In this document: piece after piece, positions 3,174-27,941 of the stretch | Position numbering within the stretch: the stretch's first letter is position 1 | How the letters are laid out: each line of letters begins with the position of its first letter | Assembly: GCA_964651965.1 (NCBI GenBank) | Contig: CAZYZS010000002.1 | Coordinates: 17,164 to 81,163, forward strand | Direction of reading: 5' to 3' | DNA length: 64,000 nucleotides | Source of the DNA: Candidatus Woesearchaeota archaeon | GTDB taxonomy: Archaea > Nanobdellota > Nanobdellia > Pacearchaeales > GW2011-AR1 | Position numbers and translations under genes: made by a program | The notes under the pieces: generated by a model | What the model saw: the letters and a program-made list of their open reading frames with translations, nothing else | What the model was told of the DNA's origin: nothing | Database searches by the model: none

Positions 3174-3929
3174 TTATACAAGCTCCCCAACTTTCCCAAA
3201 CTTATAGACTTCATCTCCAACAACATAAGCCTCAAACTCTCGTAGCTCTCTCTCAGGGATAAACATCCTGTTATCTTCAAGGTTTGCTACCTCGCTGCCC
3301 TCGACAAACGGGAAAAATGAAGGAAGGATTATTACTTTTTTATCTTTCCATTTCCCAACTAAGAAACATTTGTATTTTTCTTTTTTATAATCATCAGAGA
3401 GCACAACAGCAGGATGCCTGTGCCCCAACACCAACATTTTTATCCCTTTATCCAGGCATTCTGGAAATATTTTATCACCATGAACGAAACAAACCCCCTC
3501 TTCTACATAGTAGTCCACTACGCTCAGCTCTTTTCTCTCTGCAATTGGGCCCAAAACAGTATCATGATTTCCCTTAACAAGCACAACTTTTTCAGCTTTT
3601 TCTTTGAAAATATCCAAAATTCCTTTCACCTCTCTCCATTCCTGCTCAGAAATATCTCCAAATTCATGTTTTAAATCTCCAACAACAACTATTTCTTTTA
3701 TTTTTCCTTCATTTTCTTTTTTTATTTCTTCAAAAACCTTGTTCAAATCTTTTACAGTTTCTTCAAACTGATTTCTTGGAACAAAAATTCCCTGCTCATT
3801 CAGACTTTCTTCCCATCCCAGATGCAAATCTCCTAAAACCAGGATTTTCTGCACAGGAAAATACAGGGTTTTGCCTATAAACTTAAAATCATCCATAATA
3901 AACATGTAGCTTAAGAACTTTAAAAACAA
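3174..3929 (-). CDS. calcineurin-like metallophosphoesterase
   Basis: Motifs GDLHLG, VGDLKHEFG, GNHD, GHRH. Confidence 0.7.
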   Translation of the reverse strand: MFLKFLSYMFIMDDFKFIGKTLYFPVQKILVLGDLHLGWEESLNEQGIFVPRNQFEETVKDLNKVFEEIKKENEGKIKEIVVVGDLKHEFGDISEQEWREVKGILDIFKEKAEKVVLVKGNHDTVLGPIAERKELSVVDYYVEEGVCFVHGDKIFPECLDKGIKMLVLGHRHPAVVLSDDYKKEKYKCFLVGKWKDKKVIILPSFFPFVEGSEVANLEDNRMFIPERELREFEAYVVGDEVYKFGKVGELV

Positions 3930-3931
3930 TT

Positions 3932-4945
3932 CTAAATATCATAATTTCCTAAAGAATGCTGCCCGTGCTCGTGCACATTGTCAAACAAAACACTCAAAGA
4001 CTGCCCTGTTGCTGTCCTGTAAATAGCCTCTCCAAATAATTTTATCATGCTTACTACCTCTATGTTCTCTGCCTTTGGCGGATTTAAAGTATCAGAAACA
4101 AAAACCTTGTCAAAAATCTTGAATTTTTCAACACCTTCTGTAAATAATCCATGAGTCCCATAGGTAAAAATCTTCTTGGCCCCATTCTCTTTGAGCTTCT
4201 CCGCTGTTTTTATCATTGTATTTCCAGTATCAATAATATCATCCACAATCAAGCAGTTTTTTCCAGCAACGTCTCCAATGATTACTATTTTAGCCACCTC
4301 ATTGTCTTTTTCCCGTGTTTTATGCCCAAATGCAACTCCAGATTCTATACCCCTTTCTTTAAGCTTTTTGACAAAATAATCTGCTCTCTTTCCTCCTCCA
4401 AGGTCAGGCGAGACAATAATCAAGTCCTTTAGAAAATCCGAGTGATTTTTTTGAAGGTAATTAAGGAGGCTTGTTAAAGAATAAAGATTATCAAAGGGAA
4501 TCTTAAAATACTCCTGTATCTGCGGCGCATGCAAATCTACAGTCATTCCCCTGTCTGCGTAAAGCGAAACAGTATCTGCCAATGCCTTGGCATTAACACT
4601 TACTCTCGACTCATCTTTTCTGTCCTGTCTAGCAAACCGTGTGTAAGGCAAAACAATATTTACCTCTTTAGGAGAAGAAAAAGTAGTTGCTTCTAGCACA
4701 AAAATTAGTTCTGTGAACCATTCTGAAGGGTTTTTATTTGAATCATGGATTAAAAAGCATCTCTTCCCTCTTATGTTTTCAGCTATTTTTATCTTAAACT
4801 CTCCGTCTTTAAAGGTGCTTTTGTTCATATTAATAATGCTCACAGAAAAATCTTTGCTTTCTTTCATCTTTAAATAATCATAAATCCCCTTCGCGAAATC
4901 GTATCCTTTACTTTTAGGATCAACTATAAGGGCAACCTCTTCCAT
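3932..4945 (-). CDS. prs: ribose-phosphate pyrophosphokinase (PRPP synthetase)
   Basis: YTRFARQDRK, VDLHAPQIQEYF and the PRPP-binding loop VDDIIDTGNT. Confidence 0.85.
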   Translation of the reverse strand: MEEVALIVDPKSKGYDFAKGIYDYLKMKESKDFSVSIINMNKSTFKDGEFKIKIAENIRGKRCFLIHDSNKNPSEWFTELIFVLEATTFSSPKEVNIVLPYTRFARQDRKDESRVSVNAKALADTVSLYADRGMTVDLHAPQIQEYFKIPFDNLYSLTSLLNYLQKNHSDFLKDLIIVSPDLGGGKRADYFVKKLKERGIESGVAFGHKTREKDNEVAKIVIIGDVAGKNCLIVDDIIDTGNTMIKTAEKLKENGAKKIFTYGTHGLFTEGVEKFKIFDKVFVSDTLNPPKAENIEVVSMIKLFGEAIYRTATGQSLSVLFDNVHEHGQHSLGNYDI

Positions 4946-4999: not shown

Positions 5000-7573
5000 T
5001 TATCTCTCACTAATCTCTTTCAAATGCTCTTGGTGCATTCTTTTCAAGAACTCTATCTTATCTTCCATTTTTAATAAATCAGTGTATCCTTCTAGAACAA
5101 TAGAAAGTGCAAAGGGTGAAGGCAATTTTACATTTATTTGCTCTATTTTTACTTTTCCTTCTTTAATCCAGTCTAAAACCACTCTTGTATTATTAATATC
5201 CATTAGATCTTCCATAACTTCTCTTCTCGCCTCTCTTAAGATAGGAAAATTATGCGAAATCCTTTTTACAGAAGCAAGTAAAAAATGGCTCTTCATCTGC
5301 TGCTTTCCAACGGTCTTCCTTCTTCCTTTATAGCTCCTTAGTATCATTAACGCCCTTGTTGCGCAGTGCCTGAATCTCCTGTTTAATACTTCTGTCTTGC
5401 TGATTGCCTCTTCCAGTATTTCTTCCACATTTTTGCTGTCTAAGAATTTAAGTGCTTTCTCTATCTCTAGCTTTTCTCCAACCAGATAAAATCCATTATC
5501 TCTTATCCCCACTTCAATATCTCTCCCTCCTGCTCTACCGACCAAAAATGCCATTGCTCTTGACAGTGCATCGTTCACTCTCCTTCCATAAAGCGAGTGA
5601 AATATAGCATAGTTCTTTTCTCCCTTGTAGCGTTCAATAACTATCTTTTTTTCGTGAGGTATTAAAGCATATTTGAATTGCTCGTAAAAATAATTGTAAA
5701 TAGCCTCGCTAGCCTCTTTTTCGCAACATAGATATTCTTGAACGAACCCCCTGATTTCCTCAGGAGAACTTTTTTGTCTGAACCTTTCTTCCACTAACTT
5801 TCTAAATCTATTGATTTCATTTGCAGAGTCAAAGCTTAACGGCAGCATCTCTGAAAACCAGGAAGGTATTGTCGGAGGTCTCCTAACAGAGGAATTGACA
5901 TAAACATTCATCCCTCGAGTATACATGTATTGGTATTTGTGCCCCCCCAAAACAAAAACATCCCCTTTTTTCATTCTTTCAAGAAAGGCCTCATCTATGA
6001 CCCCTATTTTTTCTCCCATTCCATCTCCAGCAGCCACTATCACGCTGACAAAACTCTCTTCAGGTATTGTCCCTATGTTAGTCATATAAATCATTCTAGC
6101 TAATTTTCCTTTTTTCCCTATTTGTTTGGTTTCCTTATCGTACCATATTTTTGCATAGACGTTTCTTGCTTCTAATTCGTATTCCCCAGAAAGATAACTT
6201 AGAACATTAAGAAAATCTTCTCTGCTTAAACTCCTGTAACAATAGCTTTTCCTTATAAGAGAAAACATTTCTTCTTCTTCCCATACCTTATAGATAGCCA
6301 TTCCAAATATCTGCTGGCTTAAAACATCCAGGCAGTTTTGAGGTATCTGAATTTTGTCTATTTTTCTCTCCATTGCTTCTTTCGCTAAAACGCAGCATTC
6401 CACTAAATCATCCCTGTCCATTGCAATGAATCTTCCCTTGGCAACATCATGCAGCTTATGTCCTGCCCTCCCAATTCGCTGCAAGCTTCTTGCCACGCTT
6501 TTCGGGCTTCCCAAAAGTATCACAAGGTCAATGTATCCAATATCAATTCCAAGCTCTAAAGAAGTGCTTGTAACAACTACTTTTAATTTTCCTTCTCTTA
6601 ATCTCTGTTCTACATTAAATCGATGCTCTTTGCTTAAAGAAGAGTGGTGCGCCCCTATATTTTCCATATATCTATCAGGGAACTTCTCCTTTAAATGATG
6701 AATAACTCTTTCTGTAGCACTTCTTGTATTTGTGAATATTACTGTTGTTTTATGTTCCTGAATTAATTTATCCAAAAGTTCATAAAGAGAAGAATGAAGG
6801 AATTGCCCTTCTACATCTATCAAATCGCGGACAGGGGTTATTACTTTTATGTCTGTTTTTTTGACAAACTGAACATCTGCAATAAGACAATCTCTTTTCT
6901 GTCCTACTAAAAAATTAGCAATTTCTTCCAAGGGAGCAACTGTAGCAGAAAGCCCGATTCTTACAGGAGTTATCTTGCTTATCTCTTCCAGCCTTTCCAG
7001 GCTTAAACTTAGATAAACCCCTCTTTTGTTAGCTAAAGAATGTATCTCATCCACTATAACAAACTCTGTGCCTTTTAGCAGCTCCACGAAGTTTCTTGTA
7101 GTCAGGACAATTGCCAAAGTTTCCGGAGTGGTAATAAGTATGTGCGGCGCTTTTTTAAGCATCTTGCTTCTCTCACTGGTAGAAGTGTCCCCTGTCCTTA
7201 ATCCTACCCTTATATCTAATTTCCTGCCCCTAATTTTTTCCATCTCTTTTAATGGGTTATTTAAATTGACTTCAATATCTCTTGATAGCGCTTTGAGGGG
7301 GCTGACATAAATACAATAAGTCTTATTTTCTAGCTCGCCTTTTTCTTCTAAGCTCATCAGGTAGTCTAGAATAGACGCAAAAGCGCATAAAGTTTTGCCG
7401 CTTCCAGTAGGCGAGCTTACAAGTATGTTCTTCCTGCCCTTTATTGGAATGACAGCATATTTCTGAGACTCTGTGAATCCCCCAAATTTCTCTTTAAACC
7501 ATCTTCCTACCAAAGGGGTGAGGGAATTGAGTATCTCCTTATCTGAATTAGGCTTATTTATACGCTCTATCAT
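5000..7573 (-). CDS. lhr: Lhr-family ATP-dependent helicase (DEAD/DEAH superfamily 2)
   Basis: 857 aa with SSPTGSGKT, VIVDEIHS, SAT, an arginine finger GRAGH and the length and architecture of Lhr-core. Confidence 0.85.
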   Translation of the reverse strand: MIERINKPNSDKEILNSLTPLVGRWFKEKFGGFTESQKYAVIPIKGRKNILVSSPTGSGKTLCAFASILDYLMSLEEKGELENKTYCIYVSPLKALSRDIEVNLNNPLKEMEKIRGRKLDIRVGLRTGDTSTSERSKMLKKAPHILITTPETLAIVLTTRNFVELLKGTEFVIVDEIHSLANKRGVYLSLSLERLEEISKITPVRIGLSATVAPLEEIANFLVGQKRDCLIADVQFVKKTDIKVITPVRDLIDVEGQFLHSSLYELLDKLIQEHKTTVIFTNTRSATERVIHHLKEKFPDRYMENIGAHHSSLSKEHRFNVEQRLREGKLKVVVTSTSLELGIDIGYIDLVILLGSPKSVARSLQRIGRAGHKLHDVAKGRFIAMDRDDLVECCVLAKEAMERKIDKIQIPQNCLDVLSQQIFGMAIYKVWEEEEMFSLIRKSYCYRSLSREDFLNVLSYLSGEYELEARNVYAKIWYDKETKQIGKKGKLARMIYMTNIGTIPEESFVSVIVAAGDGMGEKIGVIDEAFLERMKKGDVFVLGGHKYQYMYTRGMNVYVNSSVRRPPTIPSWFSEMLPLSFDSANEINRFRKLVEERFRQKSSPEEIRGFVQEYLCCEKEASEAIYNYFYEQFKYALIPHEKKIVIERYKGEKNYAIFHSLYGRRVNDALSRAMAFLVGRAGGRDIEVGIRDNGFYLVGEKLEIEKALKFLDSKNVEEILEEAISKTEVLNRRFRHCATRALMILRSYKGRRKTVGKQQMKSHFLLASVKRISHNFPILREARREVMEDLMDINNTRVVLDWIKEGKVKIEQINVKLPSPFALSIVLEGYTDLLKMEDKIEFLKRMHQEHLKEISER

Positions 7574-7680
7574 CTTTAAATCTCCTTTAATTTATTTCCC
7601 TAGAACACCATTAATTCTTATCCAAGTAGAATCTCTTTTATCTATTGAGTATTAACCTTTAAAAACCTATTCAATTTTAA

Positions 7681-8040
7681 TTAATTCTCTGGCCAACCCA
7701 TTCTTACTTTTCCTTGGAATTGTTCAATCAATTCAGAAAGAGGGCTGTCACTTAAAAAAGCTCTATAAAATTCACTGTTAATTAACCAAGAAGAAGGTTT
7801 ATCATAGGCCTTACTAACATCTAACATTCTAGGATTCAAAAAAGCATTGCTTTTGGGATTATTATAAGCACTTTCAGGTAAGTTCCCCTCCCCGTTTCTT
7901 AAATCTCTAATCCAAACTTTACTTGGATGGGGTGTAAAGGAGATTTGCATAAATCTATCTAATCCTAGCTCGGGTATTTCTTTAGTCAAAGATAAATAAT
8001 TTCGACAAATTACTAAAGCCTGTTGTCCGGGATAATACAT
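7681..8040 (-). CDS. hypothetical protein
   Basis: 119-aa ORF with no match. Confidence 0.3.
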   Translation of the reverse strand: MYYPGQQALVICRNYLSLTKEIPELGLDRFMQISFTPHPSKVWIRDLRNGEGNLPESAYNNPKSNAFLNPRMLDVSKAYDKPSSWLINSEFYRAFLSDSPLSELIEQFQGKVRMGWPEN

Positions 8041-8388
8041 CCCAAAATACCCTAATGTTTCAATCTTCCCCGCACCCCCCTTCTTTGTTGGAATGTTGCG
8101 CAGATTACTTCTCTTTTTAATAAAACAGCTCCTCCTTCTCCAGGGATATAGGATTTATCTGTTTGTCTGGTTATTTCCAATCCTTGTTCCAAATTCTTTT
8201 TTCTCTTAAGTAATCCGCTCAGCATAGTCTTTTTAGTTATTAGGATTTTATAAAGATTGTTTCATTTCAAAACATATATGAATACTTCCCTGTTATTTAC
8301 AGCAGAAATGGCAAGAAATGTGGCTTGATATTCTGTTAAACGAATAACAAAAATATTTATAAAGTGGAGACTCTTTGATTTATCTACA

Positions 8389-9330
8389 ATGAAAAAAGTA
8401 ATCCCAAAAGAGGTTAGAGAAAAGCTTTCTAAAATAATGAAGGAGAGGTGGAGTAATCCTCTTCTAAAACAAAGGATGTCTGAGTTGCATAAGGGAAAGA
8501 AACTTTCTGAAGAGCATAAACAAAAAATTCGTGAGTCTTGTTTAAGATGGAATAAAGAGGTGGGAATGCCCTCTGAAATAAGAAAAAGAATCGCCGAAAA
8601 ACAAAGAGGAAGAAGAGTTTCAGAAGAAACTAGGAGAAAAATTTCAAAAGCAAACAAAGGGCATAAAGCTTGGAACACAGGGCTTACAAAAGCGGACCCC
8701 CGAGTAAGAAAATACACCGAAAAGAAAGCAGAAACACAAAGAAGATTGTACAAAGAGGGCAAATTAGAGCCGGGGATGTTAGGAAAGTATCATACAGAAG
8801 AGACTAAGAGGAAACTTGCTACAAGATTAAAAGGCAAAACTTATGAAGAGATATTTGGGAAAGAAAAAGCTCTGAAATGCAAGAAAAAACTTTCAGAGCT
8901 AATGAAAAACAAGGTTCAAGGAGAAAAGAATCCTATGTATGGGAGATTTGGAGAAGAAAACCCCCATTTTGGAAAACTAGCAAGGCATGGGAAACACTCT
9001 TTCAGAAAAGACCTCGGGCACCATTGTCGTTCAAAATGGGAAGCCAACTATTGCAGGTTTCTTTTGTGGCTCAATAGGAAATATCAATATGAGCCAAAAA
9101 CATTCATTATAACTTTGCCCTCAGGGATCAAAGCCACTTATACTCCCGATTTTTTAGTTGATGGGAAAGAGTGGCACGAACTTAAGGGATGGGAAAACCG
9201 CTCAGAACTAAAAAAATGGAAATTTTTTCAAGAGCAATATCCTAATGAAAAATTTGTTTTTATAAACAAAGATAAATATAAAAACCTCAAAAATTTGTAC
9301 CAATATATCATCCCGAACTGGGAATTTTAA
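8389..9330 (+). CDS. Homing-endonuclease-like protein: NUMOD3 DNA-binding repeats plus a C-terminal PD-(D/E)XK nuclease-like domain
   Basis: Repeated (S/T)EE(H/T)(K/R)xKI motifs: LSEEHKQKIRES, VSEETRRKISKANKGHKAWNTG, HTEETKRKLATRLKGK. The C-terminus reads YTPDFLVDGKEWHELKGW, a PD...ELK pattern. Confidence 0.55.
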   Translation: MKKVIPKEVREKLSKIMKERWSNPLLKQRMSELHKGKKLSEEHKQKIRESCLRWNKEVGMPSEIRKRIAEKQRGRRVSEETRRKISKANKGHKAWNTGLTKADPRVRKYTEKKAETQRRLYKEGKLEPGMLGKYHTEETKRKLATRLKGKTYEEIFGKEKALKCKKKLSELMKNKVQGEKNPMYGRFGEENPHFGKLARHGKHSFRKDLGHHCRSKWEANYCRFLLWLNRKYQYEPKTFIITLPSGIKATYTPDFLVDGKEWHELKGWENRSELKKWKFFQEQYPNEKFVFINKDKYKNLKNLYQYIIPNWEF

Positions 9331-9332
9331 AA

Positions 9333-9602
9333 ATGGTGCGAATCTCTGAAGAAAAAAAGAATAGAATTAAATCTAACATTCTAGCACATCTCTACGGATG
9401 CTTTCCAAAAGCTCTATTTACTAGCGAAATCAGTAAATTAGAAGCCAGAGACGAAGAATTTACAAAAAACCTTCTCAAGGAATTATGGAAGAATAATCTG
9501 GTTGTAGCAATTAAGAAGAATTCTAATGGTGTCACTTTCAGCAGAAGGATTAAGTGGAGAATTGGCAATAAGGCCTATGAAGCCTACAAATCTCACCAGT
9601 AA
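9333..9602 (+). CDS. hypothetical protein
   Basis: 89-aa ORF tightly spaced after the nuclease gene. Confidence 0.35.
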   Translation: MVRISEEKKNRIKSNILAHLYGCFPKALFTSEISKLEARDEEFTKNLLKELWKNNLVVAIKKNSNGVTFSRRIKWRIGNKAYEAYKSHQ

Positions 9603-9655
9603 TATATGCTTTCTAATAAGTTAATATTTAAATAAACAGTGCCCCTTTGTAGGTT

Positions 9656-10549
9656 ATGGACGAAGTAAAGATAAAAGAAGCGTTTTTTAAGGTAAAAGAA
9701 GAGATCTTTAATCTAGGAAGCGAGTTATCTGAGATAAAAAAAGAGATGCAAGAAACAGCAAGATTGATAAGGCGGATGGATGAAGAGCTCACTCGGATAA
9801 AGATAGACCTTATGCTTAGGGAAGCTGAAAAATCCCCTAGTCAACTAACAGACAAACCAACAGTCAAACAGACAAGCACTCCAACACGCAGTCCAACAGA
9901 TAGCTTTCAAAATACGTCAAATTCTGTGACTCCAACATATAATCCGACACATGGACAGGAAATAGGGGGGTGGAATACCCAAAATTGGCAGACTTCCACA
10001 GGAAATGAAGGGGTTCCAACAGACAGACAGACAAACCAACAGACAGTCCAACAGACACATCTTTTACCTGAAATACCCCATTTAGCCACTACAAAATCAT
10101 CCACTTTAGATTCTTCCGCCTTAAATGTAGTTACTAATAAAAGTAGAGAAAATGCCCAGGAAAATACCCTTGTTTTTCCTCAAAAAATCTTCCAAGATTC
10201 CAAACCAATAAAGCAACAGATTTCAGAAGCCTCTGAAATCCTCGCATCCCTCGATAATATTAAGAGAGAAATAAGGAGGAAGTTTAAGTCCATAACTAAG
10301 CAGGAAATGCTCGTTTTTTCGACAATTTACACCCTAGAAGAGCAGAGCCCAGATGCAGACTATCAAAAAATAGCCTCTAAGCTTAGTTTAAGTGAATCTT
10401 CCATAAGAGACTATGTTCAAAGAATAGTAAAAAAAGGCATACCCATAGAGAAAGAAAAGCTAAATAATAAGAAAATTATCCTTCATATTTCTCCCGAACT
10501 CAAGAAAATTGCCACTTTAGACACTATAATTAGGCTTAGAAGCCTTTAA
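9656..10549 (+). CDS. coiled-coil protein with a Thr/Gln-rich low-complexity linker and a C-terminal winged-HTH-like domain
   Basis: N-terminal heptad-like region, a TSTPTRSPTDS...QQTVQQT low-complexity tract, and a C-terminal ...SESSIRDYVQRIVKKGIPIEK HTH-like segment. Confidence 0.45.
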   Translation: MDEVKIKEAFFKVKEEIFNLGSELSEIKKEMQETARLIRRMDEELTRIKIDLMLREAEKSPSQLTDKPTVKQTSTPTRSPTDSFQNTSNSVTPTYNPTHGQEIGGWNTQNWQTSTGNEGVPTDRQTNQQTVQQTHLLPEIPHLATTKSSTLDSSALNVVTNKSRENAQENTLVFPQKIFQDSKPIKQQISEASEILASLDNIKREIRRKFKSITKQEMLVFSTIYTLEEQSPDADYQKIASKLSLSESSIRDYVQRIVKKGIPIEKEKLNNKKIILHISPELKKIATLDTIIRLRSL

Positions 10550-11147
10550 ATTCTTCGCCAGCAGATAAATTTAACAAAGACCAATATTTTCGGTGTAACG
10601 AAATTAAAATGCGCTGCTAACTAAGATAAACCCCCTGCCTTCTCTGTTTTTTAGGGGTTTTAAGCCTTGTTGAGTTATTTTCTTTGCTTAAACAAGGCTC
10701 TCCTTATTTGAATATGCTATTTTTTGAATTCTCACTTTGTTATTATCAATAATTATTTCCTTTCCTTTTTTCCTCACTTTCGTCCCTTTGTTCTCCTTTT
10801 CCTGATTTTACTGGTTTTAAGCCGCAATTTCTCTTTATTTCAGCTTAAATTCTAAAGTTCCTCGGGCCAGTAAAACCCTCACTTTGGTCTATTTTTGCCC
10901 TTTTTCTTGGTTTTTATACTCCCTTTTCCCCTGTCCGTCCTTCTTTCTAAGTCCTTATTTCTCTCTTTTTCTGCAATACTTCTGTTTTCCCCAAAAGAGA
11001 CTTGTTTTTCCCTGTTTTTTAACTCTCACTTTTACCTTTTTTTCATAAAAAAGGTTCGTATAAGCTATAAAATAGTTCGGTTAAGGTTAATTCCCTATTC
11101 AAAACCTCCCTTTTCCCATTTTTAGCTTATTTTAACCCTATTTTAGC

Positions 11148-11858
11148 TTAGTTTAAGCTTTCTTCAGCCATTTCTGCTCTTTTTTCACTAAAACCCACAT
11201 CATTTCCCTTTCCATTCCTTTTTATCCTCACTTTGGCCTTTTTTAGCATCATTCCCTTTATCTGATCCGGTATGAAGAATCTTTTTTTGTTGTTTTTCCC
11301 CATTATCTCTTCTACCAAACCATCACTTTTCTGTTTTATGCTGTTTACTTGCCCCCTTATTGTTGCCCTTTCTTTTCCTAACATTGCGGCTAGGTCATCA
11401 TAGCTCAATTTCATTTCCGAATTTAACATGACCCACACTATTGCCCTTTCAGTCACAGACAAATTATCTAAAAAATTGTCCAAAAACGATGTTTGAACAG
11501 CTGTTTGAACAGGTGTTTGAACAGCTTCAACAGCTGTTTGTTTGTTAAACACTGTTTGTTGCTGTTTAAACAGCTTTTTGTTGCCGAGTATATCTATCAT
11601 ATTTTTTAGGTTTTCTATCTCAGATCTTATCGAGGACAATTCATCGTATATCTCAGAAATCTCTTCTTTTTGCTGGTCTCCCTTCTGGTTTAGGTGTTTA
11701 ATCCAGGTAGAGGTGTTTGAAAAATCCTGTTTAACATTGTTGAAGCCTGTTTGAACAGCATACCTTAATCTTTCAACATCATCAACATCTGCCTTTTTCT
11801 TAAACCAACCAAACATGAAATACCTAGAAAGACCCCCTTTAAATACCTTTCTGTCCAT
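11148..11858 (-). CDS. coiled-coil plus winged-HTH DNA-binding protein, a paralog-like partner of 9656..10549
   Basis: QTAVQT repeats and a C-terminal LSVTERAIVWVMLNSEMKLSYDDLAAMLGKERATIRGQV wHTH. Confidence 0.45.
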   Translation of the reverse strand: MDRKVFKGGLSRYFMFGWFKKKADVDDVERLRYAVQTGFNNVKQDFSNTSTWIKHLNQKGDQQKEEISEIYDELSSIRSEIENLKNMIDILGNKKLFKQQQTVFNKQTAVEAVQTPVQTAVQTSFLDNFLDNLSVTERAIVWVMLNSEMKLSYDDLAAMLGKERATIRGQVNSIKQKSDGLVEEIMGKNNKKRFFIPDQIKGMMLKKAKVRIKRNGKGNDVGFSEKRAEMAEESLN

Positions 11859-12782
11859 ACCTCTTAATTTTCTTGTTTTTATTTTTTATTTTTTGATTTT
11901 TTTTGTAAACAAACACTCTTAAACAGCTATAAACAGCTGTTTAAAGCATAAACAGCCCATATTTTTTCCGACGATAAAACAAAAAACAGCTGTTTAAACG
12001 GGGTTTTCCGCAAAATCCAACACATAATCCAACAGATCTCGACAAAATTTTAAGGGGTTAGCAGGATAGGGGCAAATTTTTTTACACTTTTTATAAAATC
12101 TCTTCAATTTTTTATATTTTTCGCATAAATTTTTTTCATCTTTTTTAAGTCTTTTAATATTTTTAACAAACAACTTGCAACTGCTTTTTTTATTGAATCA
12201 TTTGCAATTTTTTCTTTCATTTTTTGAATATCTGTTTTTTAATTTGCAAATTTTTTGCATTGCTCAATAATTTTTTGTTTTTTTTATGTCAAAAATTGCA
12301 AAAAAGCTTATCTTTTTTTCAATTTTCTGCGATTAAAAGTTTTTATCATTGCTTAAATGTTTAAATTGGAGAATAACCTGCATAAATTTGTTAAATTTTT
12401 AAAAAATAATAAAAAAATCGGATTAATTTTGTTAAAAGTCTGTTCAATTTTTATAAAAATTTTTAGTGAGTGCCCAAAAAGAACAAAAATTCTATCCAGC
12501 ACCCAAATTAATCAGTCTTGCTAGTAGAACCGGTCCGAAGTTTCTATTTTTATCCTTTTTGCCTTCTTTTTAGGCAAGCTTTGTTGTTTTAATCTTTAAT
12601 CAAGTCACTTTCTTGATAGTTTCTTTTTAGTCTAGCCCTAACCCGAGCTTATTTACCCTAAATAAAACCTCTTATCAAAGCTTAAAACTTCCTGCATGCC
12701 TAAAAATTTCAAAAACCCATAAATAGCTAAAATATATATTCAAAAACAGCAAACCTTAAATATTTGTGAGATATTTTTTCCT

Positions 12783-13052
12783 ATGGAGCAAAATCGCCAA
12801 AATAGTGTAAGTTTAGTTCATGAACTTAGAGAAAAGCTGTATGTTCTTCAAGTAGTAGAATATTATCCGGGCGAAAAGGATCCAAGGACCATGAACACTT
12901 TTTTTAAGTATGACTCTTCAAACCAGGAGTTTAATCCAGACCAGGTGCTTAATAAGGCCTATCAACATGGGCTTGCAAGAGCAAAAGCTTTAGGGGTAGA
13001 ATTGGTATTGGAGGACGAATTAGCCCAAAGAGCAAAAAAAAGAGAGAGTTAA
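12783..13052 (+). CDS. hypothetical small protein (cassette gene A)
   Basis: 89-aa ORF preceded by a conserved upstream module. Confidence 0.4.
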   Translation: MEQNRQNSVSLVHELREKLYVLQVVEYYPGEKDPRTMNTFFKYDSSNQEFNPDQVLNKAYQHGLARAKALGVELVLEDELAQRAKKRES

Positions 13053-13195
13053 ATATTTCAATCAATGCTTAAAACTTCTTGCAAGCCTAAATTTCCTAAA
13101 AACCATTGCTTTTTTGCAGTTTTCAACAGCTGTTTATTAAAAAACATTGTTTAAACAACATAAATGTTTAAAAACAAGAAGATTTTTAATGGGCT

Positions 13196-13585
13196 ATGAG
13201 AAAAGAGAAATACTTGGATGGGGAGGGTCATCCTCTTAAAGAAGGATGGTACATAGGCGTTTTTCCTGGAAGTTCAACAAGTGCTGCTGCAAATGCGGTG
13301 AGAAATCTGCATTTTATTAGGCGAGAAGGTGGCGGCTTTTTAGCCTATTACGAGAAGGTTCCAACTCGCTTAAATCCTGATTTCGCAAAGAACTTTTACC
13401 CATTAGATGTTAAGACCTACCTTGGGATGTTAAGAGATAGAATGGGTCGTGTTTTAGGGGTTGTTGAGAAAATGGTAGGAGAAGGAGTCTTGTCTGAAGA
13501 TTTGAAAGAGAGCCTTCGTCAAACCCTCGGCGCTTCTCCTTATATTTCAGGAAGAGGTTCTTGGAAGCGCCGCCCTTCCCGATAA
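13196..13585 (+). CDS. hypothetical small protein (cassette gene B)
   Basis: 129-aa ORF preceded by a conserved upstream module. Confidence 0.4.
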   Translation: MRKEKYLDGEGHPLKEGWYIGVFPGSSTSAAANAVRNLHFIRREGGGFLAYYEKVPTRLNPDFAKNFYPLDVKTYLGMLRDRMGRVLGVVEKMVGEGVLSEDLKESLRQTLGASPYISGRGSWKRRPSR

Positions 13586-13761
13586 ATCCTTGTTAATTCT
13601 TTTAATCATTGCTTAAAACTTTTAGCATAGTCAAAATTCATAAAAACCACTGCTTTTTTCGCATTTTTTTATGGTGTTTTTGTTGTTTTTCCAGTTGTTT
13701 ATACAAAAACATTGTTTAAACAACATAAATGCTTAAATAATTTGAATTTTTTAAACGAGTT

Positions 13762-14151
13762 ATGAGTAAAGCGAATTATGAAGTTTTTTTAATTCATCCA
13801 GGAGCGGAGTTCCACCTGAATGGTTACGAGAGGGATTCAAATCACCATTCAAATTGGGGTACAGTAATTAGAAAAAATAAGGGGGTATTTGATTCTATCT
13901 ATTCATTTGTATCTATTCCCTTTCATGAGCCCGAAGAATCGGGGAAACCCCCCAAGCATTATATCGTGATGCAGTATTCTCAATCGAATGGGAAAGCAGA
14001 AAAATCAAAATTAGTTTCTATAATCGATAATCCTGCTGAAGATACTGGAGAAGCTTTGGCAAGAGAGCGAGCAGAAAAACTCGCTAGAATGTATGCTCAA
14101 AAGAGAGCGGCTAAATACGGTGTAGAAACACAAGAGATTCTACCTATTTAA
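13762..14151 (+). CDS. hypothetical small protein (cassette gene C)
   Basis: 129-aa ORF preceded by a conserved upstream module. Confidence 0.4.
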   Translation: MSKANYEVFLIHPGAEFHLNGYERDSNHHSNWGTVIRKNKGVFDSIYSFVSIPFHEPEESGKPPKHYIVMQYSQSNGKAEKSKLVSIIDNPAEDTGEALARERAEKLARMYAQKRAAKYGVETQEILPI

Positions 14152-14320
14152 GCCTGTCAAATCTTCTTATCAAAGCTTAAAACTTCCTGCAAGCATGTTT
14201 TTTAGCATAAAATAGTGACTAAAACACCGTAAGATTTATATACTTAGGGCACCCTAAGTAATCGTGAACCGGCTTTTAAATACCCTAAGTTCACACCTAA
14301 ATCCACAAAAGAGGTAAAAA

Positions 14321-15091
14321 ATGACTGAAAATTTCGCAAAACCCTTAGCTGCAATCTATGTTCGAGTTTCCACCCAAGATCAAGCACAGCATGGATTTTC
14401 TCTTGATGCACAACAAGATTCTTTGATTAACTATTCAAAAGCATTAGGTTATGAGGTTTATAAAATTTATAGAGATGAGGGAAAATCTGCCAAGGACCTG
14501 AAACGGCCTGAAATGAGCCATTTACTTAGGGATGCAGAAGAAAGGAAGTTTCAGGCAATCTTTATTTATAAATTAGACCGGTTTTCAAGAAGCTTAAAAG
14601 ATTTAATCTTAACAATCGACAAACTAAAGGAATGGGGTATAGACTTTATTTCCTTGCAAGATAAAATAGAAACCGCTTCTGCTTCTGGAAAGCTTATGTT
14701 CCATATTATCTCGGCTTTTGCGGAATTTGAAAGAAATATAATAGGGGATAGGACTAAATTCGGTATGGAGAGAAAAGCCAAGGAAGGGGGTTTTATAACA
14801 AAGGCCCCCTGTGGATATAAGCTTGTTAATAAAGAACTAATAATAGACCGTGAAACAGCAGAGCAGGTTAAACAGATATACCAAGAATTTGCTGAAAAGG
14901 AGATTTCTTTAACAAGCCTAGCCAAAGCCCATGGATTTACTACCTCCGGAATTAAGAAGCTTCTTAAAAATACTACTTACCTTGGCAAGGTTAAATTTGC
15001 AGAGCAAGAGAGTGCAGGGAAACATGAGGCCTTACTCAGCGAAGATCTATTCCAGAAGGTTCAAGAGAAACTCGGCTCTTTAAAAAAATGA
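14321..15091 (+). mobile_element. small serine recombinase (resolvase/invertase family) with a C-terminal HTH
   Basis: N-terminal AAIYVRVSTQDQ with the catalytic Ser, then DRFSRS and a resolvase-like core of 256 aa. Confidence 0.8.
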
Positions 15092-15648
15092 AAATTCTTC
15101 CAAAAACAGAAAGAGAAGCACTAGATATAGTATATAGCGTACTAAATCAGGGTGATTCAAGGTATAATGATCCTCAAAGTGAAATAATTTTATCGAAGTT
15201 TTTGTTAAATGGGGCAATTTCTTTGGAAGAAAGGCACTTTCCAGAGATTAATAGCCCAGAAAAAAGTGAACTTGAAAGCATCAAAGGAGTACAAAGAGCA
15301 GATAAATATCTAGCAAAAATACTCTTGGAAAAAGAAGGGTTTAAAGATTCAGAAATCTTTTTTGAGAGAGCTTTTTTAGGCTCTCGCCCAGATGTTCTTG
15401 CAGAGTCTGAAAGTAAGATTATTGCAGTGGAATGTTGTTCATGCAGAATAGACAAGATAGTAAATTATCTTCCAGAAGTAGAGGCAGTCTGGATATTAAC
15501 GCTAGGAGAGTCGCCATGGGGAAATATCCATTACCTAAAGGAGAAAATGCATTGGTACATTTTCAGAAAAGGAGTAAATTGGAACAGAGTTCTAGACTTT
15601 CAAAAAAAGAAAATTGAAGAATTAAAGAAAGTTCCAAGTTTGTTATAA
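15088..15648 (+). CDS. hypothetical protein, start overlapping the recombinase stop; possible PD-(D/E)XK-like core
   Basis: 186-aa ORF containing RPDVLAESESKIIAVEC. Confidence 0.35.
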   Translation: MKILPKTEREALDIVYSVLNQGDSRYNDPQSEIILSKFLLNGAISLEERHFPEINSPEKSELESIKGVQRADKYLAKILLEKEGFKDSEIFFERAFLGSRPDVLAESESKIIAVECCSCRIDKIVNYLPEVEAVWILTLGESPWGNIHYLKEKMHWYIFRKGVNWNRVLDFQKKKIEELKKVPSLL

Positions 15649-15688
15649 CATCGATTAAAACTTTTAATCGCAGAAAAATCCAAAAAAT

Positions 15689-15841
15689 TTACCAAAGAAT
15701 AAAAGCAACCAAGATAAAAACGATCAGTATTGTAATCAAAATCGCCAGGAGTTTTTTAGTGATTGTGTAAGTAAAAGTTCCAGCAGCTACAACAACTACG
15801 CAAGCAATTATCAACCAGACTTTTTGTGATAGTTCATCCAT
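15689..15841 (-). CDS. 50-aa single-TM protein not in the ORF track; paralog of 16368..16520
   Basis: MDELSQKVWLIIACVVVVAAGTFTYTITKKLLAILITILIVFILVAFILW, flanked by ATTAAAACTTTTAAT inverted repeats. Confidence 0.4.
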   Translation of the reverse strand: MDELSQKVWLIIACVVVVAAGTFTYTITKKLLAILITILIVFILVAFILW

Positions 15842-15866
15842 TTTGATTAAAACTTTTAATTAGTTA

Positions 15867-16328
15867 TTACTCACATCCCCTACATTCACATCTGCATTTA
15901 TCCTCAACACAATATGGCTTAAATCCTTCTAATAACCCTGGTTGTTCATAATCTGAACAATTAATTACCTCACAATCAGAATTAAGGTTACAGGAGTCAT
16001 ATTCTCCAAAATACTCGCACCTGTTGTTTTTGCATATAACTTCCTTATTGCAAATCATCGAGCACATTTTTCCTGTATAGCCCAAGCATAGTAACCCTGC
16101 TTTATTTTCATATATCTTTAAATATTTTTTGTTTACAGCATCTCCACAATGGCAAGAACAATGGGTAGCTACATGAACGCAGTCTTCATCTGTCTCGCAT
16201 ATTTTATGTTCGGGCTCTATTTTAATAGAGTCAGGGATTAAAGCAAAAAATAAGATTACAGCCACAATTAATATAACAACTATAATCAAAACAATTTTCC
16301 ACTTCTTTTTCATTTGAACAGTAAACAA
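15867..16328 (-). CDS. secreted or anchored cysteine-rich protein
   Basis: N-terminal TM/signal anchor followed by about 24 Cys in 120 residues. Confidence 0.5.
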   Translation of the reverse strand: MFTVQMKKKWKIVLIIVVILIVAVILFFALIPDSIKIEPEHKICETDEDCVHVATHCSCHCGDAVNKKYLKIYENKAGLLCLGYTGKMCSMICNKEVICKNNRCEYFGEYDSCNLNSDCEVINCSDYEQPGLLEGFKPYCVEDKCRCECRGCE

Positions 16329-16367
16329 AAAGACTTAATAAAACTTCCCATTAAAACTTTTAATCGC

Positions 16368-16520
16368 CTAAACAAAAAACAAAATTATTGCAATTATCAA
16401 GACTATTGCTGCTAAAATCCAAAATAACTTTTTAGCAATCTTAAGTCCTATTATGAACAACAAAACAGCTACTACCAAGGTTACAATCGGATATGTTCTG
16501 GCTAATGCATATAAATCCAT
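16368..16520 (-). CDS. 50-aa single-TM protein not in the ORF track
   Basis: MDLYALARTYPIVTLVVAVLLFIIGLKIAKKLFWILAAIVLIIAIILFFV, the same 153-nt length as 15689..15841. Confidence 0.35.
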   Translation of the reverse strand: MDLYALARTYPIVTLVVAVLLFIIGLKIAKKLFWILAAIVLIIAIILFFV

Positions 16521-16541
16521 AGAAAACAATAGTCAACGTTC

Positions 16542-16970
16542 TTAATAAATTCTTCTATCTTTCCCTCTTTCGTCCAATGCTTTATTCACTAGTTTATCAG
16601 CCTCTTGCATATGTTCGTTTTCTCTTGGAACATTCTGATAAGAAACTTCTTCAAACTCTTTTTCTGCTTTTTCAACCTGTTCAAACAGCTCCTTCAGCTC
16701 TTTTTTCTTTATTTTATACTCCCCATTCAGTTGCCTGACAACAAGCTCAGAATCCGAATAAATATGCACTTTTTTAGCATATTTTTTGCACAGTTCTAAG
16801 GCCCTAATTATTGCCCTGTATTCAGCTTCATTGTTGGTTTTTATGCCAACAAACTCTTTATATTCTTCAATCATCTGGTCATTTTCATCTAAAATTATTA
16901 TGCCAATAGCGGCTTTTCCAGGATTTCCTCTTGCCCCACCATCTGTATAAACAAACAATCTTTTTTCCAT
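16542..16970 (-). CDS. rnhA: ribonuclease HI (type 1 RNase H)
   Basis: YTDGGARGNPG, NNEAEY, YSDSELVV and the C-terminal H...D motif. Confidence 0.75.
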   Translation of the reverse strand: MEKRLFVYTDGGARGNPGKAAIGIIILDENDQMIEEYKEFVGIKTNNEAEYRAIIRALELCKKYAKKVHIYSDSELVVRQLNGEYKIKKKELKELFEQVEKAEKEFEEVSYQNVPRENEHMQEADKLVNKALDERGKDRRIY

Positions 16971-17046
16971 GTAAAAATTTACTCGCTGTCTGTTAATAAA
17001 CCTGTTGTTTAAATAAGATTTATAAAGATATACTCTCTTTCATAAC

Positions 17047-17313
17047 ATGCAAATCCTAGGTTTAATCGCTTCTATCTTAACAATATTGCTAGTGTTTATC
17101 GGATTAGTTTCGCAAGTAATAATAAATTTTAAAAGAAAATCTTGCAGAGGGTTATCTCTAATCTATTTTATTATAATCTTTTTTGCATATTCTGCTTGGT
17201 CCATGTATGGGGTTTCGATATCTGACTGGTATTTGATAATTCCTCAAATCGCAGGAGCAATAATTTCTTTAATCCTTCTTTTCCAATTTTATCTTTATAG
17301 AAAAAGTATCTAA
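17047..17313 (+). CDS. small membrane protein
   Basis: 88 aa, mostly hydrophobic helices. Confidence 0.4.
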   Translation: MQILGLIASILTILLVFIGLVSQVIINFKRKSCRGLSLIYFIIIFFAYSAWSMYGVSISDWYLIIPQIAGAIISLILLFQFYLYRKSI

Positions 17314-17428
17314 AGTTACCCCCTTTCCTTTTTGTTTAACTTTTTGGCTGTTTAAACAGCTGTTTAAACGCCACAAACACTTTCAAAAAACAAATATTTT
17401 TATACTTTCCACCTTTAGATTTCCTATC

Positions 17429-18121
17429 ATGAAAACAATAGGGCTTCTTGGGGGCATGAGCTGGAAATCATCTCTAGAGTATTATAGGATAATAAACGAA
17501 ACCATCCAAAAGAGATTGGGCGGTTGGAATTCAGCAAAGATAATTCTTTATTCTGTAAACTTTGATGAAATAGACCTAGAACATCAAACAAAAGATTGGC
17601 AAAAATCCGACGGCATCTTAATAAATGCTGCAAAATCTCTAGAAAAAGGAGGAGCCGATCTTATCGTTATTTGCTGTAATACCGCGCATGTGCTTTATGA
17701 AGAGCTCCAAAAAAATGTTAAAATACCTATTTTGCATATTGCAGATGCAACAGCAGAAAAGATTAAAGCTGAAAAAATTAAGAAAGTAGGGCTTTTAGGA
17801 ACAAAACTTACCATGGATGAAGAATTTTATAAAGGGAGATTAGAGAAAAAGTACGGGCTTACTGTTATTGTTCCAACAGAAAAGGAAAAAGAGGCAGTTC
17901 ATACGGGGATAAACAGCATAATTCAAGGAAAAACAAACTTAGACATGAAAAGGCAATTTATTCAAATTATTAAAAATTTGGTTAAAAATGGTGCAGAGGC
18001 AGTAATCCTCGGCTGCACAGAAATCCCGCTGGTAGTCTCTCAAAAAGACGTAAACACGCGATTATTTGATACTGCGAGGATTCATGCCGAGAGTGCTGCA
18101 GAACATTCTTTAGAAAATTAA
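17429..18121 (+). CDS. aspartate/glutamate racemase family protein
   Basis: IGLLGGMSW, VICCNTAH and AVILGCTEIP with the two catalytic Cys. Confidence 0.75.
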   Translation: MKTIGLLGGMSWKSSLEYYRIINETIQKRLGGWNSAKIILYSVNFDEIDLEHQTKDWQKSDGILINAAKSLEKGGADLIVICCNTAHVLYEELQKNVKIPILHIADATAEKIKAEKIKKVGLLGTKLTMDEEFYKGRLEKKYGLTVIVPTEKEKEAVHTGINSIIQGKTNLDMKRQFIQIIKNLVKNGAEAVILGCTEIPLVVSQKDVNTRLFDTARIHAESAAEHSLEN

Positions 18122-24591: not shown

Positions 24592-25428
24592 ATGAATAAA
24601 GAGGAATTTTTAAAAAAGATTGAAACCGAGCTAAAAATATCTAAAAATTCTGCTTACACCATTCGCAATTATGTTGCCTACAACGCCGCCCTTCTTGAAT
24701 TTTCTAAAAAAACTCCAGAAGAACTATCTTTAGATGACGTTAAACTTTACATAGCAGAACATTTGACAGAAAAATCTTCTTCTTCAGTTATACTTTTTCT
24801 TGCGGCAATTAAATATGCCCATTCTACAATATTTTCACGAGATATTACAGCAGGAATAAAACGCCCAAAAAAAGAAAAGAAAATACCAACAGTCCTCTCA
24901 AAAGAAGAGATAAAAGCGCTTCTATCTTCAATAACCAATTCAAAAAGTAAGCTGATGATAAGCCTATTGTATGCCTGCGGTTTTAGGGTTTCTGAGTTAG
25001 TTAACCTTAAAATACGAGATTTAGATTTCAACAATAAAGTAGGGCATGCAAGGCAGGCGAAAGGAAAAAAAGATAGGACTTTTAATATCCCAGAATTTCT
25101 TGTTTTGGTCTTGATGCAGCGAGCAGAAAAACAAAAATCACTCAATCAAGAGTATCTTTTCACAGGCCCAAAAGGCCGGTTATCTTCAAGAAACGTACAA
25201 AAAATTGTTAAAAAAGCAGCGAAAAAAGCAGGAATAGAAAAAGAAGTCCATCCCCATACCCTCAGACATTCTTTCGCCACTCACCTTCTTGAAAATGGAA
25301 CAGACATAAGGATGATACAGGAATTACTTGGACACAGCGACCTCAGCACAACACAAATATATACTCATATTTCTAATGAAGAACTAAAGAAAATAAAAAG
25401 CCCAATTGATAGTTTAATGAAAGAATAA
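24592..25428 (+). CDS. xerA: tyrosine recombinase, XerA/XerC/XerD-like
   Basis: C-terminal HTLRHSFATHLLENGTDIRMIQELLGHSDLSTTQIYTHI with R, HxxR and the catalytic Y. Confidence 0.8.
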   Translation: MNKEEFLKKIETELKISKNSAYTIRNYVAYNAALLEFSKKTPEELSLDDVKLYIAEHLTEKSSSSVILFLAAIKYAHSTIFSRDITAGIKRPKKEKKIPTVLSKEEIKALLSSITNSKSKLMISLLYACGFRVSELVNLKIRDLDFNNKVGHARQAKGKKDRTFNIPEFLVLVLMQRAEKQKSLNQEYLFTGPKGRLSSRNVQKIVKKAAKKAGIEKEVHPHTLRHSFATHLLENGTDIRMIQELLGHSDLSTTQIYTHISNEELKKIKSPIDSLMKE

Positions 25429-27793: not shown

Positions 27794-27809
27794 GTTGAAA
27801 ATTATGGAG

Positions 27810-27905: not shown

Positions 27906-27941
27906 GTACTTAAAAACAATACGCGAGGCTTTTAAAAAGCT

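Follow-up and report, generated by a model that had tools for sequence, protein, structure and literature searches.

Introduction

What kind of DNA is the block between positions 9333 and 17400 of the present stretch, a piece of 64,000 nt from a Pacearchaeota (DPANN) chromosome that is hereafter called the window? A first, sequence-only reading took it for a single integrated plasmid or virus of about 8 kb, in which a serine recombinase, two coiled-coil DNA-binding proteins, a ribonuclease (RNase) HI and a series of unrecognisable small genes would have travelled together. DPANN archaea have tiny genomes, and we know of almost nothing on how they regulate their genes or exchange them; a search of the literature found nothing on this locus, nor on serine recombinases of DPANN archaea. 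Here we show that the block is a composite of host DNA, made of a core regulator module and of the start of a gene-turnover hotspot. For the locus as a whole, the explanation that we consider probable is a vertically inherited regulator module joined to a hotspot, the latter holding an array of genes behind a shared cassette and a short serine recombinase.

Materials and Methods

Of the related loci used here (L followed by a number), 80 were fetched with the Lhr-type helicase of the window as query (5000-7573, minus strand; Pfam DEAD, Helicase_C, WH_Lhr and DEAD_assoc), which is also the left anchor of synteny. These 80 come from metagenome-assembled genomes of Pacearchaeota, Woesearchaeota and Nanoarchaeota; cc236 and the recombinase served as further queries. 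The family libraries were Pfam, NCBIfam, PHROGs and PADLOC, and IMG/VR was the virus set; transfer RNAs (tRNAs) were sought with ARAGORN and non-coding RNAs with Rfam, whilst AlphaFold2 (AF2) models were built from database homologs.

A composite of host DNA

The closest locus, as judged by Lhr, is L004 (Pacearchaeota RBG_13_36_9; 93% amino acid identity). Between 3933 and 7686 the window is collinear with it; 7687-9278 is missing there; 9279-12349 is again collinear, at 80-82% nucleotide identity and with both of its long non-coding tracts included; 12350-16564 is replaced by a different 5.5 kb, with only intergenic repeat units in common; and collinearity returns over the RNase HI gene (16565-17013), after which 17014-18117 is missing. 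A second close relative, L085 (Lhr 91%), which comes from a metagenome scan, aligns with 9279-12349 at about 79%, and blastn against both relatives finds about 12350-16335 replaced relative to the window. L085 keeps the genes for a NUMOD3 endonuclease and an Asp racemase on the two sides of the block, and within it the RNase HI gene and two genes for small transmembrane (TM) proteins, tm50 and tm53. Between these TM genes it has an FKBP-type gene in place of the window's cys153, and it has a tyrosine recombinase and an HNH gene where the window has the serine recombinase and the gene p186. The window, L004 and L085 therefore differ gene by gene, by several independent gene-sized indels and replacements.

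Comparison with related genomes thus splits the block into a conserved left part, a variable middle and a conserved right end. As one unit, it is not present in some relatives and absent from others: only about 12350-16350 differs between them, one gene at a time. The idea of non-core DNA linked to a recombinase therefore holds for roughly half of the block, the strain-variable part at about 12350-16350 that includes the recombinase, but not for the proposed boundaries, for the unity of the block or for the label of plasmid or virus. The two long tracts once contrasted with the host genome (10560-11147 and 11860-12780) do lack any credible open reading frame (ORF), but up to about 12350 they are syntenic in 33 related genomes and belong to the core.

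The three genes at the left, w89, cc297 and cc236, are syntenic in 33 loci, with order and orientation unchanged. Their identity to the window broadly parallels that of Lhr: it is 94, 78 and 93% respectively in L004, 65, 54 and 70% in L005, and 44, 34 and 42% in L008, which is more distant. The trio stands, in L091 and L092, directly after cdc6, a PRC-barrel gene and a gene of 142 amino acids (aa), which makes the module core and puts its ancestral place beside the origin. Behind it, these two genomes have a pair of small genes, then the serine recombinase, some accessory genes and a ribosomal-protein cluster. In the window, too, cdc6, the PRC gene, the 142-aa gene and the ribosomal cluster come one after another in this order, the cluster being S9-L13-L18e-RpoD-S11-S4-S13 (26615-30177, minus strand; 45-58% by tblastn with the L091 proteins), the right anchor of synteny, which ends the variable region in L091 and L092 as well. 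The interval between module and cluster, which is about 14 kb long in the window, measures 8 kb in L092 and about 4 kb in L091. In other genomes it is occupied by genes for HEPN, Fic, GmrSD, restriction-modification, ParE, HAD, M23 peptidase, radical-SAM and HNH proteins, and by many for small membrane proteins (e.g., DUF5654). Gene order and identity together indicate that the w89-cc297-cc236 module is vertically inherited, core and Pacearchaeota-wide, and that a hotspot lies between two conserved anchors, this module and the S9-S13 operon.

The regulator module

The first gene of the module, w89 (9333-9602, plus strand), encodes a small conserved protein with a syntenic ortholog in each of those 33 loci, at about 45-65% identity beyond L004 (apart from the 44% of L008), and without a family match in Pfam or NCBIfam. 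The other two encode coiled-coil (CC) proteins with a C-terminal winged helix-turn-helix (wHTH), just as had been proposed from the sequence. That of cc297 (9656-10549, plus strand; orthologs in 33 loci) has a Q/T-rich linker and matches HTH_11 at 9e-5. That of cc236 (11148-11858, minus strand) has QTxVQT repeats, and its true start is likely to be the MFGWFKKK at 11798; its orthologs (33 sequences aligned) share this N-terminus, followed by a long helix, the QTxVQT repeats and a highly conserved C-terminal domain. In its AF2 model a helix at residues 3-72 leads through a disordered linker into a confident wHTH at 104-185, for which Foldseek returns MarR, AbfR2/Lrs14 and SmtB. The wHTHs of both proteins are homologous (hhalign probability 96.8%, E 2.6e-10), and the two thus appear to be distant paralogs, a relation that took a profile-profile comparison to see, direct BLAST between them being not significant (E 0.055). 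The cc236 family has at least 2955 clusters at 90% identity; every source name among its best 120 matches is that of a DPANN archaeon and none is functional. Not one relative of cc236 was found in IMG/VR, no Pfam or NCBIfam model covers the family of the CC proteins, and their PHROGs matches are marginal (E 0.002-0.009).

The CC genes are always convergent, around a spacer that in the window occupies 10550-11147, is ORF-free with stops in all frames, and is about 80% identical to its counterparts in L004 and L085. Equivalents are found in 32 of 32 loci, where they are 114-815 nt long, ORF-free and 55-78% purine on the sense strand of cc236. In every frame the spacer has the look of K/E/R-rich coding sequence that has decayed. 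Possible explanations are an RNA, an element of DNA structure, or what is left of a variable C-terminal tail.

On the other side of cc236 lies the divergent promoter region (11859-12349). It contains two AAACAGCTGTTT palindromes (11931 and 11984) and, at 12331-12347, the palindrome GATTAAAAGTTTTTATC, just past which, at about 12350, the alignment with L004 and L085 ends. AAACAGCTGTTT occurs seven times in the window against 0.47 expected, always within 11495-17365: three copies (11495-11579) are inside cc236, where they encode the conserved QTAVQ repeats, and the others are at 11931, 11984, 13124 and 17354. In 17 of 32 loci it is also found up to 225 nt upstream of cc236. That the same letters stand upstream of this gene and encode QTAVQ within it is either a coincidence or the mark of an operator embedded in the regulator's own coding sequence. 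We rejected AAACAGCTGTTT as an element-specific attachment (att) or terminal repeat, given the three coding copies and the upstream copies kept in those 17 loci. The dense repeats and palindromes noticed in the block are real, above chance and locus-specific, except that some of those counted are simply part of the cc236 gene.

The variable island and its cassette

Past 12350 the genes p89 (12783-13052), p129a (13196-13585) and p129b (13762-14151), like the recombinase gene that follows, are on the plus strand, and each of the four is preceded by a unit of about 70 nt that we call cassette M. Copy 1 (12662-12728, plus strand; nhmmer E 3e-12) shows its make-up, two direct half-sites TAAAACTTyTnnGCA and a TAAAAAT. 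Copies 2 (13047-13111) and 3 (13590-13655), each accompanied by a D8 unit (13127-13189 and 13692-13754, respectively), lie upstream of p129a and p129b on the same strand, and copy 4 (14154-14218, plus strand; E 5e-11) precedes the recombinase gene, as a copy does in L016, where the enzyme is a serine recombinase, and in L035, where it is a tyrosine recombinase. All three proteins are small ORFans. The claim that the small genes are unrecognisable is borne out by the complete lack of matches in Pfam, NCBIfam, PHROGs and PADLOC, extended for p129a and p129b by the same result in IMG/VR. For p129a there is no ortholog in L004 or L085, whilst p89 is a diverged ortholog (33-35% identity) of the 79-aa first gene of both.

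A profile search for the cassette with nhmmer over 1.5 Mb of fetched loci gave 37 matches in 22 loci. Without exception these are on the strand that does not encode cc236, towards the small genes, and for 29 of them an ORF starts no more than about 330 nt downstream, mostly at 20-180 nt. In the consensus, nTAAAACTTTTAAGCAAnGCTnAAAACTTTTnGCATGnnTAAAAAT, two consecutive direct half-sites are followed by a TATA-like box. The half-site is the palindrome GCTTAAAAsTTTTAAGC, of which single copies also stand at 12331, 15653, 15845 and 16349 of the window. Numerous related loci have it too, and it hardly occurs outside this region; ATTAAAACTTTTAAT has 9 matches against 2.5 expected. Three of these single copies sit at gene junctions to the right of the recombinase: GATTAAAACTTTTAATC at 15653-15669, between the convergent p186 and tm50, a copy at 15845-15861, between tm50 and cys153, and another at 16349-16365, between cys153 and tm53, where homology with L085 resumes.

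The intergenic M/D8 units of the window, L004 and L085 are 70-91% identical and yet stand between different genes, those in between being unrelated or very diverged even among close relatives. Cassette M is restricted to this locus. Its conservation does not depend on the type of recombinase within reach, serine or tyrosine, or on there being one at all, which is why we read the unit as a putative operator/promoter of the winged-helix proteins. A scan for promoters and terminators of the bacterial type gave counts equal to the shuffled expectation. We also considered the AT-rich palindrome as the site of the serine recombinase, and disfavour it as part of a promoter cassette that is kept in loci with tyrosine recombinases.

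A short serine recombinase with a candidate site of its own

The recombinase gene (14321-15091, plus strand) encodes 256 aa, with catalytic and recombinase domains and neither a zinc ribbon nor a coiled coil. Its identification from the sequence as a serine recombinase is correct (Pfam Resolvase, PF00239, 1e-42; Recombinase, PF07508, 6e-9 at residues 182-251). Its similarity to the N-terminal domain of the TP901-1 integrase (3bvp) reaches 3.6e-32, it is 36% identical to the first 250 aa or so of phage large serine integrases, and its VRVSTQDQ and KLDRFSRS are invariant in 32 homologs. The AF2 model superposes, by Foldseek, on the structures of the Bxb1, phiC31 and Listeria-phage integrases over the catalytic and recombinase domains only (for the recombinase domain of 4kis: 124 columns, rmsd 3.1, 32% identity), and its scores on the NCBIfam models of CcrB, CcrC and XisF fall well short of their cut-offs. 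The family has 986 clusters of about 250 aa and is abundant in DPANN archaea, its best 120 matches being 246-275 aa long and 75-83% identical to the query. The enzyme is thus of the serine type that had been called unusual, although in DPANN archaea it is no rarity. All nine copies examined are at this locus (the window, L016, L021, L037, L090-L092, L094 and a 4231-bp NCBI contig, the last counted by inference, as this contig was taken to carry the cc236 homolog P0016 and the recombinase homolog P0122, for both of which its length is given), and the protein is also present, with identical gene order, on contigs of three metagenomes. As far as its sequence goes, then, the recombinase appears to be an undescribed abundant family of about 250 aa, consisting of catalytic and recombinase domains only and interchangeable with XerA-type enzymes.

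Upstream of the gene lies a compact site (14235-14294, plus strand): a TATA box at 14235-14242, the perfect palindrome CTTAGGG-CA-CCCTAAG at 14243-14258, GTGAAC at 14264-14269 and the half-site CCCTAAGTTCAC at 14283-14294. The same layout is found in five genomes, namely TTTATATA, CTTAGGG-CA-CCCTAAG, GTGrAC, about 15 nt, CCCTAAGTTCAC and a Shine-Dalgarno-like AAGAGG. The palindrome is kept in the window, L016 (where its centre reads TG in gene orientation), L090, L091 and L092, and is absent from L021 and L037; there is one full copy in the window. This palindrome (CTTAGGGCACCCTAAG, with CTTAGGGnnCCCTAAG sites) is distinct from the AT-rich one of the cassettes. We regard 14235-14294 as a candidate binding or crossover site, operator or both, in a layout that resembles that of a resolvase gene with the site in its own promoter.

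The start of the next gene, p186 (15088-15648, plus strand), overlaps the recombinase stop. Its family has 39 clusters, whose few source names are Nanoarchaeota or 'hypothetical'. In the window, L016 and L094 the gene before it is that of the serine recombinase, in L093 that of an XerA-type tyrosine recombinase. The idea that a large serine recombinase has been split, with p186 as its zinc-ribbon half, found no support, as p186 matches no model and follows a tyrosine recombinase as well. In L091 (11433-11852) and L092 (11007-11411), one or two genes downstream of the full recombinase, there are stand-alone proteins of 134-139 aa made of a short coiled coil and a recombinase domain, 40% identical to about residues 148-254 of the window enzyme. 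Directly after the p186 homolog of L016 comes a HAD-hydrolase gene flanked by a direct repeat of about 25 bp, TGATGAGCTATAAAATGAAAAA (3420-3445 and 4085-4110), which looks like a recent single-gene insertion.

Relatives without the serine enzyme often have, in its place and with its orientation, a tyrosine recombinase of XerA type. Those at the locus in L004, L085, L093 and L028 score 244-250 bits on the NCBIfam XerA model, above its cut-off of 220. This use of the same slot suggests that the recombinase is a swappable component of the locus. An inverted repeat TCTAAT-N4-5-ATTAGA upstream of the tyrosine recombinase gene in L004, L085 and L093 is a candidate binding or crossover site of that enzyme; the repeat, of the form AAGAACTTC-nn-CTAAT-N4-5-ATTAGA, lies about 70 nt upstream (L004 at about 4385-4405, L085 at about 3657-3677, L093 at about 8089-8109). 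The window has an XerA-type gene of its own (24592-25428, plus strand; NCBIfam recomb_XerA_Arch, 238.8 bits against a cut-off of 220) at the far end of the variable region, some 1.2 kb upstream of the ribosomal-protein cluster, and its product is only 43% identical to the locus tyrosine recombinase of L004.

Signs of an integrated element

All the ORFs from which an element had been proposed are present where they had been placed, and the serine recombinase does provide a site-specific integrase. Other signs of a plasmid or virus are absent. Between the proposed ends no exact match is longer than 11 nt, where the null mean is 10.7, which leaves no att-like direct repeats there; ARAGORN finds no tRNA in the block, and Rfam nothing above noise over 7-19 kb. 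With PHROGs only the recombinase and the NUMOD3 gene outside the block are significant, and Pfam, PHROGs and PADLOC reveal no hallmark gene for replication, partition, capsid or packaging. The IMG/VR scans gave no relatives, and blastn gave nothing against phages and only 98 nt inside a resolvase gene against plasmids, so that the search of the gene set in viral and plasmid databases yields no more than generic resolvase similarity. The GC content (0.29-0.36) is not distinct from that of the window (about 0.35). An integron was rejected too, in view of the lack of IntI and of attC-type units; reading the 3' region of p89 showed no R''/R' pair of an attC site, although no covariance-model search for attC was made.

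Right end and flanking regions

The genes at the right of the block are on the minus strand. The small TM protein of tm50 (15689-15841) has a 58% ortholog in L085, where it adjoins RNase HI, and that of tm53 (16368-16529) a 72% ortholog there. Both had been called TM paralogs; small TM proteins they are, but their paralogy is weak (28% identity over 43 aa). Between them, cys153 (15867-16328) encodes a signal-anchor protein with no family match and no IMG/VR relative, in which 18 Cys are counted in 153 aa, instead of the 24 once reported for a secreted protein. The RNase HI (16542-16970), rightly recognised from the sequence and confirmed by Pfam, is 85% identical in L004 and 83% in L085, and is a conserved gene and not cargo. 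Next to it, a gene for a SemiSWEET-type transporter (17047-17313, plus strand; Pfam MtN3_slv 2e-10) lies within an insertion of about 370 bp (17014-17385) that is absent from L085 and L004, with a tandem AAACAGCTGTTTAAAC palindrome (17343-17369) on its 3' side. The Asp racemase gene behind it (17386-18117), kept in L085, is absent from L004.

On the left, an indel of 1.6 kb (7681-9282) contains the ORF fragments 7681-8040 and 8052-8225 on the minus strand and most of the NUMOD3/PD-(D/E)xK gene (8389-9330, plus strand). It is absent from L004 and present in L085, L088 and L089, and is flanked by an imperfect direct repeat of about 27 bp (7652-7680 and 9283-9310), of which L004 keeps one hybrid copy. 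The NUMOD3 gene matches Pfam NUMOD3 (1e-13), PHROGs endonuclease and homing-endonuclease families, and a PD-(D/E)xK fold like that of T7 endonuclease I. In L085 it is accompanied by a duplicated fragment of the w89 N-terminus (L085 10690-10791).

The window starts inside cdc6/orc1, whose 5' part (1-393, minus strand) runs off its edge (79% to the L086 Cdc6 over residues 1-131 by tblastn), and the locus is therefore origin-proximal. Between cdc6/orc1 and the PRC-barrel gene, the ORF-free, AT-rich 1 kb at 394-1396 is, by its position, the likely oriC. It has an AT-only tract (683-743) flanked by inverted repeats of 30 nt (438-467 and 714-743), repeated TTTCCTnTGCAA boxes and TTAGAACACCTT / ATTTCCTnTGCAA boxes. 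A motif (G/T)TTCGCACAA, found in the intergenic region on the oriC side and shortly upstream of the start codons of unrelated genes (852-872, 1217-1237 and about 24570 of the window, and in several loci), may be a general promoter-proximal element of these archaea. In the right anchor, between the L18e and RpoD genes, ARAGORN reports at 27809-27905 a 97-nt 'tRNA-???' with a four-base anticodon, which is probably a tRNA with an intron or some other atypical feature; in the same gap, L091 and L092 have in common a stretch of 84 nt at 96% identity (L091 13411-13494).

Discussion

If the block is host DNA of the kind described, the module at 9333-12349, that is w89 and two DNA-binding paralogs with their spacer and divergent promoter, would ancestrally have had its place a few kb from cdc6/orc1. 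The hotspot would extend from about 12350 to the S9-S13 operon at about 26.6 kb, its first genes being small ORFans, each behind its cassette of about 70 nt. Position and conservation suggest that the module's winged-helix proteins may bind the cassette sites and co-regulate the array. Genes would be gained, lost and swapped singly, by recombination between the repeated cassettes and the conserved flanks. The recombinase may bind the palindrome in its own promoter, with its non-palindromic CA centre, and thereby regulate itself and cross over there. As there would be a single such site per chromosome, it could recombine sister or dimer copies with each other, or the chromosome with a circle that brings in the same site.

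Some points weigh against this explanation. Because of the queries used for fetching (Lhr, cc236 and the recombinase), genomes with the arrangement are favoured in the sample. The variable segment is enclosed by an inverted repeat of 35 nt (12313-12347 / 15653-15687; 89% complementary), and homology with relatives breaks right at its palindromes, both of which would also fit a discrete unit bounded by a recombinase. Lastly, when loci are compared in pairs, the identity of the recombinase is out of step with that of cc236 and w89, with 96% against 63% for cc236 between L021 and L037, and 80% against 88% between L091 and L092; the gene is thus exchanged horizontally, as a mobile element would behave.

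The alternative built on these observations is a smaller mobile unit of about 3.3-4.0 kb (some 12331-15669, or up to 16365), bounded by inverted copies of GCGATTAAAAGTTTTwATC, which would carry p89, p129a, p129b, the serine recombinase and p186, and would be moved, inverted or exchanged by its own recombinase at those palindromes. We think it unlikely. It is true that the inverted repeat brackets exactly these genes, that the left palindrome is, to within a few bases, the place where homology with L004 and L085 ends and the right one that where homology with L085 resumes, that tandem copies mark the three gene junctions at 15653, 15845 and 16349, and that the recombinase is discordant with its host. 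But the palindrome is the half-site of the cassette, kept in loci with a tyrosine recombinase or none, and is thus unlikely to be specific to a serine enzyme, which moreover has a different conserved palindrome of its own. The inverted repeat of this genome is the generic operator palindrome, and its right arm, after p186, is missing from L093 and L094. For p89, with which the supposed unit begins, L004 and L085 have a diverged ortholog in the same first position. The recombinase gene, finally, has the same orientation relative to cc236 in 18 of 18 loci, contrary to inversion, so that we disfavour inversion of the whole segment as well.

A wider reading, which we hold only tentatively and do not expect to be right, sees in the locus a platform for capturing and diversifying genes under the control of the regulators, placed beside the origin and apparently universal in Pacearchaeota. 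In it, cassette M and small genes would be exchanged as units, and the recombinase, serine or XerA-type, would bring in or resolve circles at its own palindrome; or else the locus would serve origin-proximal multimer resolution, with the serine enzyme displacing XerA.

Quite unlikely, in our view, is that the whole locus descends from an ancient extrachromosomal element fixed beside oriC, whose recombinase and palindrome would work like res or dif in multimer resolution. The origin-proximal position speaks in its favour, as does the one full site in 64 kb, lying in the promoter of the recombinase, as in resolvase/res systems. So do the very conserved family of 250 aa and the fact that this slot, ahead of the same p186 gene, can hold a functional analogue of a different type, with the TCTAAT repeat upstream of it in L004, L085 and L093. 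On the other hand, the window already has the XerA-type gene at 24592-25428, and a dimer-resolution site would be expected near the terminus, not the origin; the palindrome is lacking in L021 and L037, the identity of the recombinase is discordant with that of the host, and many loci have no recombinase within 10 kb. As for a single plasmid or virus of about 8 kb integrated at 9333-17400, with wHTH regulators, a serine integrase, and RNase HI and a Cys-rich protein as cargo, we consider it extremely unlikely: a recombinase, DNA-binding proteins, ORFans and dense local repeats are indeed all in the block, but synteny and a divergence in step with the host mark its left 3 kb and RNase HI, and boundary repeats, hallmark genes, relatives among IMG/VR, phages and plasmids, and a GC anomaly are all absent.

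The composite of module and hotspot shares features with several known systems without matching any. With gene-flux hotspots and defence islands it has in common conserved flanks, gene-by-gene replacement, recombinase genes and, in relatives, cargo such as restriction-modification, HEPN, Fic, ParE and GmrSD; it differs in that the proximal genes share a locus-specific cassette conserved across genera, in that dedicated lineage-specific regulators adjoin, and in that no tRNA or att site marks the hotspot. Like integrons, it has an array of small, mostly unknown genes with repeated units between them and a site-specific recombinase at the locus. However, the enzyme is serine or XerA-type and not IntI (the XerA-type enzymes of relatives reach 205-207 bits, below the integron-integrase cut-off of 265), it lies at the distal end of the array, and the units are promoter-like direct-repeat cassettes upstream of genes and not attC hairpins at their 3' ends. 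Integrons do exist in archaea, with 6 IntI genes and 539 attC sites reported in 75 genomes (PMC9668308).

The recombinase itself resembles the large serine recombinases (TP901-1, Bxb1 and phiC31; CcrA/B; XisF) in its YxRVSTxxQ and DRxxR motifs, long alpha-E helix and PF07508 domain, in its 36% identity to TP901-1 Int over 242 aa and in its fold (9dxd, 9iu2, 4bqq, 4kis). Unlike these enzymes of about 400-700 aa it ends at residue 256, without the zinc ribbon/coiled-coil motif, and has no attL or attR. In gamma-delta and Tn3 the res site is in the resolvase gene's own promoter. With such resolvases and the invertases (gamma-delta/Tn3, Sin, Hin/Gin, beta) the window shares a dyad site overlapping the promoter of the gene, a non-palindromic central dinucleotide and an extra downstream half-site. 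It differs from them in that the DNA-binding domain of the enzyme is the recombinase domain and not a small C-terminal HTH, in that no second site exists in either orientation within 64 kb, and in that there is no transposase. From archaeal XerA/dif it is set apart by the fact that the block's own enzyme is a serine and not an XerA-type tyrosine recombinase. As to the regulators, the C-terminal domain of cc236 has the fold of MarR, Lrs14 (AbfR2) and ArsR-SmtB proteins, but it is preceded by a helix of about 70 residues and a disordered QTxVQT linker, and the two CC paralogs, unlike those regulators, are always convergent around a purine-rich spacer.

In conclusion, the results of this analysis remove a false provirus or plasmid annotation and put in its place an uncharacterised, apparently Pacearchaeota-wide locus, in which paired coiled-coil wHTH proteins, a shared cassette and hypervariable small, often membrane, proteins are found together beside oriC. 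The cassette, as a shared putative operator/promoter, offers a binding site that can be tested directly, whilst a minimal serine recombinase with what may be a compact palindromic site would be of interest for the mechanism of recombinases and for the development of tools. If the locus were a capture platform after all, it would have arrived at an integron-like logic from unrelated parts. Either way, it would give a handle on gene flux in episymbiotic archaea.

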